This document shows, in pieces, positions 1 through 4,230 of a stretch of DNA of 4,230 nucleotides. A program made the position numbers and the translations under genes. The DNA lies in the IMG/VR virus record IMGVR_UViG_2713896789_000014. One strand, written 5' to 3'. Below the pieces are notes generated by a model, which saw nothing but the letters and a program-made list of their open reading frames with translations, did no database searches and was not told where the DNA came from. This DNA is from a virus (lineage: Duplodnaviria > Heunggongvirae > Uroviricota > Caudoviricetes). Each line of letters opens with the position of its first letter. Position 1 is the first letter of the stretch.

Positions 1-498
1 TCAAAAAAACACGGTGTTTTCCGGGTGCTGCCGGTAAAAGGCGCATCTGTCTATGGCAAGCCGGTGATCACCATGCCAAAAACCCGCAATCAGCGGGGCG
101 TGTATCTGTGTGAAGTGGGGACGGACACCGCAAAAGAAATTCTCTATGCCCGTATGAAAGCCGATCCCACGCCTGCGGATGAAGCCACGTCGTATGCCAT
201 CCGTTTTCCTGATGATCCGGAGATTTTTTCGCAGACAGAGGCGCAGCAACTGGTGGCGGAGGAGCTGGTGGAGAAGTGGGAAAAAGGAAAGATGCGTCTG
301 TTGTGGGATAACAAAAAGCGGCGTAACGAAGCGCTGGACTGCCTGGTGTATGCCTACGCGGCATTACGTGTGTCTGTGCAACGCTGGCAGCTTGATCTGG
401 CTGTACTGGCAAAATCCCGGGAAGAAGAGACGACCCGGCCAACCCTGAAAGAACTGGCAGCGAAGCTGTCCGGAGGAGTGAATGGTTACAGTCGCTGA
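1..498 (+). CDS. A: Terminase large subunit, C-terminal portion (lambda gpA-like); 5' end lies upstream of the window
   Basis: Frame 1 is open from position 1 (no in-frame stop) to TGA at 496-498. The translation (…RFPDDPEIFSQTEAQQLVAEELVEKWEKGKMRLLWDNKKRRNEALDCLVYAYAALRVSVQRWQLDLAVLA…) closely matches the recalled C-terminus of lambda gpA (…NEALDC.VYA.AALRISISRWQLDL…). It sits immediately upstream of W and B homologs, as in lambda. Confidence 0.85.
   Translation, partial: SKKHGVFRVLPVKGASVYGKPVITMPKTRNQRGVYLCEVGTDTAKEILYARMKADPTPADEATSYAIRFPDDPEIFSQTEAQQLVAEELVEKWEKGKMRLLWDNKKRRNEALDCLVYAYAALRVSVQRWQLDLAVLAKSREEETTRPTLKELAAKLSGGVNGYSR
472..477 (+). promoter_or_regulatory. Ribosome binding site for the gpW-like gene
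   Basis: GGAGGA 4 nt upstream of ATG at 482, located within the 3' end of the terminase gene. Confidence 0.6.
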
Positions 499-688
499 AC
501 TGCAGGCGCTGCGTCAGGCGCGCCTTGATTTATTAACCGGTAAACGGGTGGTGTCTGTCCAGAAAGATGGTCGCAGAATTGAATATACGGCGGCTTCTCT
601 GGATGAGCTTAACCGTGCGATCAATGATGCGGAGTCGGTACTGGGGACAACCCGCCGTCGCCGTCGTCCGCTGGGAGTGAGGTTATGA
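482..688 (+). CDS. W: Head completion / head-tail joining protein (lambda gpW-like), 68 aa
   Basis: ATG at 482 is preceded by GGAGGA (472-477) at 4-nt spacing. The 68-aa product has the same length as lambda gpW and shares its core motif (LLTGKRVVSVQKDGRRIEYTAASLDEL versus lambda [27 protein letters not shown]). The start overlaps the terminase 3' end by 17 nt and the stop overlaps the B start (ATGA). Confidence 0.85.
   Translation: MVTVAELQALRQARLDLLTGKRVVSVQKDGRRIEYTAASLDELNRAINDAESVLGTTRRRRRPLGVRL
673..682 (+). promoter_or_regulatory. Ribosome binding site for the portal gene, within the 3' end of W
   Basis: GGGAGTGAGG immediately upstream of ATG at 685, with the W stop overlapping the B start (ATGA). 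Confidence 0.5.
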
Positions 689-2270
689 AACGAACGCCTG
701 TCCTGATTGATGTGAACGGCGTTCCGCTTCGGGAGAGTCTCAGCTACCACGGGGGCGGTGCAGGATTTGGCGGGCAAATGGCGGAGTGGTTGCCACCGGC
801 GCAGAGTGCCGATGCGGCCCTGCTGCCCGCGTTGCGTCTGGGGAATGCCCGTGCAGATGATCTGGTACGCAATAACGGGATAGCGGCTAATGCGGTGGCC
901 CTGCATAAGGATCATATTGTCGGGCATATGTTTCTTATCAGCTACCGTCCGAACTGGCGCTGGCTGGGGATGCGGGAGACTGCGGCAAAAAGTTTTGTCG
1001 ATGAGGTGGAGGCGGCCTGGTCGGAATACGCAGAAGGGATGTTTGGCGAGATCGACGTGGAAGGGAAACGCACGTTCACGGAATTTATCCGTGAAGGTGT
1101 GGGCGTTCATGCCTTTAACGGCGAAATCTTTGTGCAGCCGGTCTGGGATACGGAAACCACGCAGTTATTCCGCACGCGTTTTAAAGCCGTGAGTCCGAAA
1201 CGGGTGGACACGCCAGGACACGGTATCGGGAATCGTTTTCTGCGGGCCGGGGTGGAGGTCGATCGATATGGCCGTGCCGTTGCGTACCATATCTGTGAGG
1301 ATGATTTTCCTCGCTCCTGGAGTGGACGATGGGAACGGATCCCGCGTGAACTTCCCACCGGGCGTCCGGCCATGCTGCATATTTTCGAGCCGGTGGAGGA
1401 CGGGCAGACCCGTGGGGCCAATCAGTTTTACAGCGTTATGGAACGGCTGAAGATGCTGGATTCCCTGCAGGCAACACAGCTTCAGTCGGCCATTGTTAAA
1501 GCCATGTATGCAGCGACGATTGAAAGTGAACTTGATACCGAAAAGGCCTTTGAATATATCGCGGGGGCACCGCAGGGTCAGCAGGATAATCCGCTTATTA
1601 ATATTCTGGAGAAGTTCTCCAGCTGGTATGACACGAATCATGTGACGCTGGGCGGTGTCAAAATTCCGCACCTTTTCCCCGGGGATGATCTGAAACTGCA
1701 GACCGCGCAGGATTCAGACAATGGATTTTCGGCGCTTGAACAGGCGCTGCTGCGGTATATCGCCGCCGGTCTTGGCGTTTCCTACGAACAGTTGTCCCGT
1801 GATTACTCGAAGGTCAGTTATTCAAGTGCCCGCGCCTCCGCCAATGAGTCGTGGCGCTATTTTATGGGACGACGAAAATTTATTGCAGCCCGGCTGGCCA
1901 CGCAGATGTTTTCCTGCTGGCTGGAAGAGGCACTTCTTCGGGGGATTATCCGTCCGCCACGGGCACGTTTTGATTTTTATCAGGCGCGATCAGCCTGGTC
2001 GCGGGCAGAGTGGATTGGTGCCGGAAGAATGGCCATTGACGGGCTCAAGGAGGTCCAGGAATCGGTGATGCGTATTGATTCCGGACTGAGCACCTATGAG
2101 AAAGAGCTGGCGCTGATGGGTGAGGATTATCAGGACATTTTCCGCCAGCAAGTCAGGGAATCCGCAGAGCGGGAAAAGGCCGGACTCTCACGTCCGGTGT
2201 GGATAGCGCAGGCGTATCAGCAGCAGATAGCGGAGAGCCGCAGGCCGGAAGAGGAGACAACACCACGTGA
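685..2270 (+). CDS. B: Portal protein (lambda gpB-like); 3' end and stop codon lost in the N gap at 2271-2320
   Basis: ATG at 685 overlaps the W stop (ATGA at 685-688) and follows GGGAGTGAGG (673-682). About 528 codons are open before the gap, against a recalled ~533 aa for lambda gpB. Extensive recalled similarity to lambda gpB includes YHGGGAGFGGQ, NARADDLVRNNG, FEPVEDGQTRGANQFYSVME, LQSAIVKAMYAATIESELDT, LRYIAAGLGVSYEQLSR and SGRMAIDGLKEVQE. The ORF-track extension to 2343 reads through Ns and is not reliable. Confidence 0.9.
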
Positions 2271-2320: not shown

Positions 2321-3468
2321 GACGAGTACATGGCCGGAGGTAAACGACCGGCCCGTGTTTACCGGGTGGTGAACGGTATTGCTGTACTGCCGGTGACCGG
2401 CACGCTGGTGCACCGGCTGGGTGGCATGCGGCCATTTTCCGGAATGACAGGCTATGACGGCATTGTCGCCTGTCTTCAGCAGGCAATGGCGGATAGCCAG
2501 GTGCGGGGCGTATTGCTGGACATTGACAGTCCGGGCGGGCAGGCCGCAGGCGCGTTTGACTGCGCTGACATGATTTACCGCCTCCGGCAGCAGAAGCCGG
2601 TCTGGGCACTGTGNNNNNNNNNNNNNNNNNNNNNNNNNNNNNNNNNNNNNNNNNNNNNNNNNNGGAGTGGATATCACGCTGATTTATGCCGGGGCGCATA
2701 AGGTGGATGGCAATCAGTTTGAAGCGTTACCGTCAGAGGTGCGTCAGGACATGCAGCAGCGCATTGATGCGGCGCACCGGATGTTTGCCGAAAAAGTGGC
2801 GATGTATACCGGGCTGTCTGTGGATGCGGTCACGGGGACAGAGGCTGCCGTTTTTGAAGGTCAGTCCGGTATTGAGGCCGGACTGGCGGATGAATTAATC
2901 AATGCGTCGGATGCCATCAGTGTGATGGCTGCGGCGCTGAACACACATGATACAGGAGGCACTATGCCGCAATTAACTGCAACNNNNNNNNNNNNNNNNN
3001 NNNNNNNNNNNNNNNNNNNNNNNNNNNNNNNNNCTTGCCACGATGCTGGCAGGACAACAGGGCATGAGCGTTGAACAGGCCCGGGCGATTCTGGCCGCGG
3101 CAGCATCACAGCAGCCGGTGGCATCCGCGCAGAGTGAAGCCGATCGCATTATGGCGTGTGAAGAAGCGAAAGGTCGTGAACAACTGGCGGCAACGCTGGC
3201 GGCGATGCCGGAGATGACGGTGGAAAAAGCCCGCCCTGTCCTGGCGGCTGCACCACGGGCGGATGCCGGGCCCTCACTCCGTGATCAGATTATGGATCTG
3301 GATGAGGCAAAAGGGGCTGAGGCGCAGGCTGAAAAACTGGCGGCCTGCCCGGGAATGANNNNNNNNNNNNNNNNNNNNNNNNNNNNNNNNNNNNNNNNNN
3401 NNNNNNNNGTGCCACAGACGTCAGCAGACGGTGATGCGGACGTGAAAATGCTCATGGCCATGCCATGA
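2321..3468 (+). CDS. C: Prohead protease / minor capsid protein (lambda gpC-like, ClpP/S49-type), interrupted by three 50-N gaps; start codon lies in the gap at 2271-2320
   Basis: Three segments match the recalled lambda gpC sequence. Segment 2321-2613: RPARVYRVVNGIAVLPVTGTLV…MTGYDGIVACLQQA…LLDIDSPGGQAAGAFDCADMIYRLRQQKPVWAL. Segment 2664-2983: GVDITLIYAGAHKVDGN…QQRIDAAHRMFAEKVAMYTGLSV…TEAAVFEGQSGIEAGLADELINASDAISVM. Segment 3034-3468 is Nu3-like and ends at TGA 3466-3468. The window frame changes across the gaps at 2614-2663 and 2984-3033, consistent with gaps of unknown true size. Confidence 0.8.
2614..2663. other. Run of 50 N inside the gpC-like gene
   Basis: Exactly 50 N. In lambda about 46 codons separate the flanking motifs (KPVWAL … GVEITLIY), so roughly 140 nt are probably missing. 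The reading frame is not preserved across the 50-N placeholder. Confidence 0.95.
2954..2959 (+). promoter_or_regulatory. Internal ribosome binding site (AGGAGG) for the nested Nu3-like start
   Basis: Perfect AGGAGG 4 nt upstream of the in-frame ATG at 2964, inside the C coding sequence. Confidence 0.6.
2964..3468 (+). CDS. Nu3: Scaffolding protein (lambda Nu3-like), translated from an internal in-frame start within the C reading frame; interrupted by two 50-N gaps
   Basis: ATG at 2964-2966 is in the C frame and preceded by a strong Shine-Dalgarno AGGAGG (2954-2959) at 4-nt spacing. It lies at the position corresponding to where lambda Nu3 begins inside C (lambda …SGGRMTKETQ…). The downstream sequence (…RIMACEEAKGREQLAATLAAMPEMTVEKARPVLAAAP…) matches the recalled lambda Nu3 region (…RIMGILNCEEAHGREEQARVLAETPGMTVKTARRILAAAP…). 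Stop is TGA at 3466-3468. Confidence 0.65.
2984..3033. other. Run of 50 N inside the C/Nu3 region
   Basis: Exactly 50 N. The frame on the two sides is inconsistent with a true 50-nt distance, so the gap size is unknown. Confidence 0.95.
3061..3358 (+). repeat. Diverged in-frame tandem repeat (about 150-nt / 50-aa period, at least two copies) within the Nu3-like scaffold coding region
   Basis: Copy 1 begins GMSVEQARAILAAA (from 3061) and contains ADRIMACEEAKGREQLAA. Copy 2 begins EMTVEKARPVLAAAP (from 3211) and contains RDQIMDLDEAKGAEAQAEKLAA. A third copy appears to begin at GM (3352-3357) just before the N gap. Recalled lambda Nu3 has a single copy of this motif. Confidence 0.55.
3359..3408. 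other. Run of 50 N near the 3' end of the C/Nu3 frame
   Basis: Exactly 50 N. It begins right at the start of a putative third copy of the Nu3 repeat motif. Confidence 0.95.
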
Positions 3469-3503
3469 AGTCAGTGCTGACATCAATATGAGGTTTTAAC
3501 AAA

Positions 3504-3955
3504 ATGGTGACGAAAACCATCACTAAACAGCGTGCGGAAGTACGTATTTTTGCCGGTAATGATCCGGCTCACACCGCCACAGGCAGCAGCGGGATTTCTC
3601 AGGCAACACCGGCACTGACGCCCCTGATGCTGGANNNNNNNNNNNNNNNNNNNNNNNNNNNNNNNNNNNNNNNNNNNNNNNNNNAGGCAGCAGCGGGATT
3701 TCTCAGGCAACACCGGCACTGACGCCCCTGATGCTGGATGAAGCCACCGGGAAACTGGTGGTCTGGGACGGACAGAAAGCCGGTAGTGCGGTTGGCATAC
3801 TGGTACTGCCGCTTGAAGGCACAGAGACGGTGCTGACCTATTACAAGTCGGGGACCTTTGCGACGGAGGCAATCCGCTGGCCTGAAAGTGTGGATGAACA
3901 CAAAAAGGCCAACGCCTTTGTCGGCACAGCCCTGAGTCACGCGGCGCTGCCGTAA
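3504..3955 (+). CDS. D: Head decoration protein (lambda gpD-like); apparent disruption is an assembly artefact (50 N plus a 54-bp duplicated contig end)
   Basis: ATG at 3504 with TGAGG upstream (3489-3493); stop TAA at 3953-3955. The core …DPAHTATGSSGISQATPALTPLMLDEATGKLVVWDGQKAGSAVGILVLPLEGTETVLTYYKSGTFATEAIRWPESVDEHKKANAFVGTALS… matches recalled lambda gpD (…DPAHTAT…MTPLMLD…KLVAWDG…AAVGIL…YKSGTF…WPE…AFAGTAIS). Joining 3634 directly to 3739, which removes the Ns and one copy of the duplicate, gives a continuous 115-aa ORF. Confidence 0.85.
3581..3634 (+). repeat. 54-bp segment, copy 1 of a perfect direct duplication flanking the N gap
   Basis: aggcagcagcgggatttctcaggcaacaccggcactgacgcccctgatgctgga at 3581-3634 is identical to 3685-3738. 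Confidence 0.9.
3635..3684. other. Run of 50 N inside the gpD-like gene; probably a zero-length gap between overlapping contigs
   Basis: Exactly 50 N flanked by identical 54-bp sequences. Removing the Ns plus one repeat copy restores the D reading frame. Confidence 0.9.
3685..3738 (+). repeat. 54-bp segment, copy 2 of the perfect direct duplication flanking the N gap
   Basis: Identical to 3581-3634 and located immediately after the N run. Confidence 0.9.
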
Positions 3956-3963
3956 CACGTTAT

Positions 3964-3983
3964 CAGGCCACCGCGTTGGCCTG
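3964..3983 (+). other. Short hairpin in the D-E intergenic region (7-bp perfect stem, 6-nt loop)
   Basis: caggcca (3964-3970), loop ccgcgt, tggcctg (3977-3983) are exact reverse complements. There is no following U-tract, so it is unlikely to be a strong intrinsic terminator. It may be an RNA stability or processing element. Confidence 0.3.
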
Positions 3984-3999
3984 ACTGATTTCTGAATGA

Positions 4000-4004
4000 A
4001 AGGA
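4000..4004 (+). promoter_or_regulatory. Ribosome binding site for the major capsid gene
   Basis: AAGGA 8 nt upstream of ATG at 4013. Confidence 0.5.
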
Positions 4005-4012
4005 ACTGATTT

Positions 4013-4230
4013 ATGGGATTGTTTACGACCCGCCAGTTACTCGGTTATACCGAACAAAAAGTGAAATTTCGTGCGCTGTTTCTGGAACTGTTTTTCCGCC
4101 GTACGGTGAATTTCCACACCGAAGAGGTGATGCTGGACAAAATTACCGGAAAAACGCCGGTGGCAGCCTATGTCTCCCCGGTTGTTGAAGGAAAAGTGCT
4201 GCGTCATCGTGGTGGTGAAACCCGCGTGTT
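4013..4230 (+). CDS. E: Major capsid protein (lambda gpE-like), N-terminal portion; continues beyond the window
   Basis: ATG at 4013 is preceded by AAGGA (4000-4004) at 8-nt spacing. The translation MGLFTTRQLLGYTEQKVKFRALFLELFFRR…AAYVSPVVEGKVLRHRGGET matches recalled lambda gpE (MSMYTTAQLLAANEQKFKFDPLFLRLFFRE…ALYVSPIVSGEVIRSRGGST). It is open to the end of the window. Confidence 0.85.
   Translation, partial: MGLFTTRQLLGYTEQKVKFRALFLELFFRRTVNFHTEEVMLDKITGKTPVAAYVSPVVEGKVLRHRGGETRV

Follow-up and report, generated by a model that had tools for sequence, protein, structure and literature searches.

A 54-base direct repeat in the head decoration gene of a phage-21-like Escherichia coli prophage scaffold as a probable unmerged contig overlap

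The head decoration gene in the window, by which we mean the whole 4,230-nucleotide stretch of DNA analysed, is written with the same 54 bases before and after a run of 50 Ns. This arrangement is very probably a scaffolding artefact, in which overlapping contigs were joined by a placeholder gap, and the underlying decoration gene would be intact, with a single copy of the 54-mer. The window covers the head-gene block of a phage-21-like lambdoid prophage of Escherichia coli. It is matched by closed E. coli chromosomes at approximately 98% identity, and in these the genes follow one another in the order terminase large subunit, head-tail joining protein, portal, S49 family peptidase, head decoration protein and major capsid protein.

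The repeat and the N run between its copies

As presented, the window consists of six N-free pieces joined into a scaffold by five N runs of exactly 50 (2271-2320, 2614-2663, 2984-3033, 3359-3408, and 3635-3684), of which the original prediction mentioned only the last. Both a direct string comparison and a repeat search of the window, in which the repeat is family D1, showed that 3581-3634 and 3685-3738 are identical in 54 of 54 bases, with a start-to-start spacing of 104, which bears out the duplication around 50 Ns described in the original prediction. The features at this site are as follows.

3504-3634, forward strand: 5' part of the head decoration gene (phage 21 shp/lambda D family), codons 1-43 and two further bases
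3581-3634, forward strand: copy 1 of the 54-mer, the terminal 54 bases of the left contig (piece 3409-3634), within the head decoration gene
3635-3684, no strand: fifth 50-N placeholder, with a true distance of -54, that is, a negative gap, in references L001, L002, L003, and L004
3685-3738, forward strand: copy 2 of the 54-mer, the redundant copy, the initial 54 bases of the right contig (piece 3685-4230)
3739-3955, forward strand: 3' part of the head decoration gene, with the stop codon at 3953-3955, in frame with 3504-3634 after removal of the Ns and copy 2

Both edges of the N run are abutted, copy 1 ending one base before the Ns and copy 2 starting one base after them, and the suffix of the left contig is therefore the prefix of the right contig exactly at these edges; the repeat cannot be extended on either side, because positions 3684 and 3635 are themselves N. 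By our own arithmetic [(4230^2/2)/4^54], a perfect 54-mer direct repeat would be expected by chance about 3e-26 times in 4230 bases, and the runner-up direct repeat that the search returned from the window spans 27 nt at 70% identity. Only the last of the five 50-N runs is flanked by a repeat. It had also been claimed that the insertion of 104 nt, not being a multiple of 3, breaks the frame of the decoration gene, and this agrees with the list of open reading frames, which holds two fragments of the gene: one of 72 amino acids (3504-3722), which crosses the Ns and enters copy 2 in the wrong frame, and one of 74 amino acids (3731-3955).

Distances between the contigs in ungapped references

The window was cut at its N runs and each of the six pieces was mapped onto four independent ungapped references, namely, the closed E. 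coli chromosomes L001 (CP073589) and L002 (CP104472) and the N-free IMG/VR prophage contigs L003 and L004 (the latter being IMGVR_UViG_2703718818_000003), which were the sole IMG/VR matches to an 82-base stretch specific to the left contig in an exact scan. Exact scans of the genome contig collection gave no match, either to this 82-base stretch or to the junction as written (35 bases, 50 N, and 32 bases). The true distances at the five joins were +170, +136, +73, +125, and -54 bases, and they were the same in all four references. Since these distances vary while every N run is 50 long, the 50 Ns are fixed placeholders that carry no size information, and the length of the runs, compared at five joins with four references, is a convention rather than a measured distance. 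At the fifth join, the true distance of -54 corresponds to a negative gap, with contig ends that overlap by 54 bases. Alignment of both flanks to closed related prophages had been proposed as a check together with the original prediction; when it was carried out, the distance between the flanks was -54 in the two closed chromosomes as well as in the two ungapped contigs.

The same measurements bear on a reading in which real bases were overwritten one for one by Ns, so that the repeat would be real on both sides of a 50-base masked stretch. The description of the genome collection does mention a few masked stretches read as N runs, but masking in place would preserve distances, and because the five 50-N runs match five different true distances in the four references, we rejected this explanation, to which we attach next to no credence.

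Of the ungapped references, L004 begins at window position 1962 and is identical (100%) to the overlapped part of piece 1 and to pieces 2 to 5, the left piece of the fifth join terminating on it at the very base where the overlap ends; its identity to piece 6 (3685-4230) is 99.6%, with two adjacent mismatches only, at 3921-3922. The 54-mer occurs once in L004. When the four gaps were filled from L004 and the overlap was collapsed, a sequence of 4430 bases was obtained in which the portal gene, the peptidase/scaffold gene, encoding 501 amino acids, and the decoration gene are all open. The remaining placeholders and the neighboring genes are the following.

1-498, forward strand: terminal (3') portion of the terminase large subunit gene (open reading frame, and RefSeq annotation of closed genomes aligned to it)
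482-688, forward strand: head-tail joining protein gene, gpW-like (open reading frame and annotation of the aligned genomes)
685-2270, forward strand: portal protein gene, truncated by gap 1, which removes the last two codons and the stop codon
2267-3468, forward strand: S49 family peptidase/scaffold gene (equivalent of lambda C/Nu3), with four placeholders inside; intact, 501 amino acids, when filled from L004
2271-2320, no strand: 50-N placeholder 1, hiding 170 real bases, the portal stop codon and approximately the first 57 codons of the S49 peptidase/scaffold gene
2614-2663, no strand: 50-N placeholder 2, hiding 136 real bases within the S49 peptidase gene
2984-3033, no strand: 50-N placeholder 3, standing for 73 real bases of the peptidase gene, in its scaffold part
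3359-3408, no strand: 50-N placeholder 4, standing for 125 real bases of the peptidase gene, in its scaffold part
4013-4230, forward strand: 5' part of the major capsid protein gene, with ATG at 4013 (coordinates transferred from the annotation of L001)

In the reconstruction based on L004, the portal open reading frame ends 7 bases into the missing stretch; gap 1 removes this stop codon, and a mechanical call therefore reads the portal gene through the Ns (685-2343, 552 amino acids). The peptidase/scaffold gene, as written in the window, lies in four fragments. The C-terminal scaffold region of the L004-filled 501-residue peptidase (residues ~314-470, window 2984-3468) contains three tandem units spaced ~47-50 residues apart, with EAKG at residues 326, 376, and 423, each followed by M(S/T)VExAR..LAA, and with pairwise local BLOSUM62 scores of 87-107. 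These internal repeats were considered as a cause of gaps 3 and 4 and rejected, as they are alike at the protein level only; the DNA-level match among them is limited to 15 nt at 93% identity (D8), which is far too little to confuse an assembler.

The relatedness of the pieces to the two closed chromosomes differs along the window. Piece 1-2270 resembles CP104472 (98.2%) more than CP073589 (96.7%); for piece 3685-4230 the ranking is reversed, with 99.5% identity to CP073589 and 98.2% to CP104472. This mosaic pattern can reflect either ordinary lambdoid mosaicism or a scaffold in which contigs of sibling prophages are mixed.

The decoration gene after collapse and its relatives

Removal of the Ns and of one copy of the 54-mer joins 3504-3634 to 3739-3955 and gives 348 nt, that is, 115 codons and a stop codon, just as had been anticipated from the window. 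The gene starts with ATG at 3504, with GAGG 9 nt upstream. Its collapsed product aligns over residues 1-115 with residues 1-115 of PDB entry 1TD3 (115 amino acids; E = 4e-68), scores 83.7 bits against Pfam family PF02924 (HDPD; gathering cut-off, 29.1), with residues 5-110 covering positions 1-114 of the 116-position profile, and is identical in 112 of 115 residues, with no gaps, to WP_053265129.1, annotated as "head decoration protein" in the closed genome CP073589. According to the annotations of aligned genomes and phages, the gene lies between the protease/scaffold and major capsid genes of the lambdoid head module. Judged by its sequence, the collapsed gene is an ordinary, intact, full-length head decoration gene of the gpD/SHP family.

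The original prediction had called the gene gpD-like and the alignment with lambda gpD end to end. The family assignment holds; the nearest relative, however, is the SHP of phage 21, and it is with SHP that the alignment runs from end to end (1-115). We take PDB entries 1TD0, 1TD3, and 1TD4 to be this protein (M81255 likewise carries the annotation "shp"), from which the collapsed product differs by approximately 8 substitutions (e.g., E8K, SP33-34QA, A75V, and H90R), corresponding to ~93% identity. At the DNA level, the phage 21 records M81255 and OL657228 are 96.8% identical over the collapsed 718 nt, and they have the same neighbors, a protease/scaffold gene upstream and a major capsid gene downstream, whereas the copy in the window, as written, is split by the probable artefact. 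Lambda gpD (1C5E, 7VII, and 1VD0) belongs to the same Pfam family and occupies the same place in the head gene order, but only residues ~18-110 of the collapsed product align with residues 15-108 of the 110 in gpD (E ~1e-29 to 3e-29), leaving the N-terminal ~17 residues unaligned, and the overall similarity is much below that to SHP. On the strength of the ~93% identity to crystallised SHP, the protein would act as a capsid-binding trimer that stabilises the expanded capsid.

The number of copies of the 54-mer was assessed in relatives by using the collapsed sequence of 718 nt (3409-3634 joined to 3739-4230), which matches closed chromosomes as one ungapped piece over 718 bases at up to 99.3% identity. 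From the ranked list of 1917 matching records, 60 were drawn at regular intervals, and 58 of these showed single near-full-length pieces spanning 715-719 bases, the remainder being one partial single-piece match at 74% identity and one match to the first 100 bases only; the duplication was found in none of the 60 records sampled across the 1917. An exact scan found the 54-mer exactly once in each of 27 IMG/VR contigs, and it is present once in L001. In the collapsed sequence, the 54-mer starts with AGGCAGCAGC and ends with ...GATGCTGGA, followed by TGAAGCC. The same context, with ...ACCGCCAC before the 54-mer and TGA(A/G) directly after it, is found in all 27 IMG/VR contigs, and TGA(A/G) also directly follows the 54-mer in L001. 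Closely related complete sequences (L004, the 27 IMG/VR contigs, L001, and the closed genomes) consequently carry one copy with contiguous flanks, and no relative examined shows a duplication. By extension from these relatives, the source genome itself would be expected to carry a single copy.

These counts weigh against a real tandem duplication within the decoration gene, which would require a unit P longer than 54 bases, with the left contig ending in copy 1, the right contig starting in copy 2, and a true gap of P-54. By our own reasoning, identical sequence at both edges of an unsized gap looks the same locally in this case as in the case of an overlap, and 54 is a multiple of 3, which makes an in-frame event conceivable. 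If true, it would imply either an internally repeated decoration protein or a pseudogene in a prophage with otherwise intact-looking head genes. We nevertheless regard it as very improbable for several reasons: (i) the 54-mer is single-copy in every one of the 27 IMG/VR contigs and in L001, with no duplication in the 60 sampled records; (ii) the virtually identical L004 is single-copy; (iii) the other four 50-N runs show that the spacer is without size information; (iv) the product is a compact, presumably trimeric decoration protein of 115 residues that matches crystallised SHP over its full length.

The only two-piece match (H85) was examined as a possible case of real gene disruption and rejected as such: an IS200C insertion lies in the spacer 3' of the decoration gene, the gene is intact (348 nt), and there is no duplication. 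In closed E. coli B1.H1.18 (L030, CP146564), IS200C is located at 745-1512, a site that corresponds approximately to window positions 3956-4012, in the spacer between the decoration and major capsid genes, both of which are intact despite the insertion. A terminator-like scan of the window also identified, in this same spacer, a perfect hairpin with an 8-bp stem at 3963-3984, TCAGGCCA-CCGCGT-TGGCCTGA, followed by a T-rich tail. A further observation concerns L008 and L026 (IMGVR_UViG_2617271340_000001 and IMGVR_UViG_2617271340_000013), separate viral contigs from a single IMG genome, in both of which the identical 54-mer has the same flanks; they are a direct example of sibling prophages with a common head module in one genome.

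Origin of the unmerged overlap and consequences for the record

The distance of -54 in four references and the single-copy relatives support the view, put forward in the original prediction, that overlapping contig ends were joined with a placeholder gap and that neither a real insertion nor a pseudogene is involved. A draft assembly would have yielded short contigs of the phage-21-like head module, which were then ordered and joined by a fixed 50-N spacer whatever the real distance. At four joins, real sequence is missing; at the fifth, true neighbors with a 54-base end overlap would have been left unmerged with the spacer put between them, and the common 54 bases would thereby have been written a second time beyond the Ns. 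Both negative gap sizes between overlapping contigs and the insertion of gaps between such contigs have been described for ALLPATHS-LG and SOAPdenovo2 (PMC5368935). The present case resembles such negative-gap joins in draft scaffolds, where contigs with a common end sequence are separated by Ns instead of being merged and a perfect direct repeat arises around the gap, and it is distinguished by a spacer that is constant, with 50 N at each of the five joins, and that suggests plain concatenation or ordering of contigs instead of a scaffolder that estimates sizes.

The length of the overlap may itself be informative, as 54 would equal k-1 at k = 55 in a de Bruijn assembler. In de Bruijn graphs of the Velvet or ABySS type, contigs overlap by k-1, which leaves 54 bases at k = 55. 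The bases directly flanking the 54-mer are invariant among 28 relatives, in which the nearest variable sites lie 9 bases upstream (3572) and 4 and 9 bases downstream (3742 and 3747). A contig break at a de Bruijn branch produced by known prophage variants was therefore rejected, as the boundaries of the overlap do not coincide with variable sites. The k-1 reading is plausible but unproven, no branch point being visible among the 28 relatives, and it is just as possible that the assembler was overlap-based and applied a minimum-overlap rule.

The fragmentation of the assembly can be explained by the multiplicity of the module, which occupies as many as 5-6 places in a closed E. coli genome and, as described above, is present in two viral contigs from a single IMG genome; contigs as short as those seen here (226-325 bases) are consistent with several sibling prophages of the same genome having been collapsed. 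The same circumstances lend some support to a chimeric join, in which 3409-3634 and 3685-4230 would stem from different sibling prophages that share the 54-mer and would have been placed together by reference-guided ordering: contigs of this size commonly result from collapsed or branched repeats, every piece overlapped by L004 matches it at 100% except the last, with its two mismatches, and the piece-wise identities to L001 and L002 are mosaic. We consider such a join unlikely, since the mismatches are only two and adjacent, and the variant at 3921-3922 is also present in L001, which matches the left piece at 99.1%, so that ordinary strain variation suffices to account for it; moreover, both parents would in either case have an intact single-copy gene. 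If the join were chimeric, the duplication would still be an artefact and the conclusion drawn on it would be unchanged, while the collapsed gene of 115 codons would be a composite that is absent as such from the genome.

To conclude, the 54-base duplication is very probably not a biological feature, and its importance is one of data and annotation quality only. Annotators of the record would see a split or frameshifted decoration gene, a portal open reading frame that runs through Ns, and a fragmented protease/scaffold gene, and such damaged models could lead to the prophage being wrongly scored as defective. The other four placeholders harm the models of the portal and peptidase/scaffold genes just as the fifth harms that of the decoration gene. 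The expectation in the original prediction that annotation pipelines would call the decoration gene disrupted or split is a reasonable one. For the screening of draft scaffolds, a simple rule follows, namely, that a perfect repeat touching both edges of an N run of fixed length indicates an unmerged contig overlap. Once the overlap is collapsed, an ordinary, intact decoration gene of the phage 21 type is restored.
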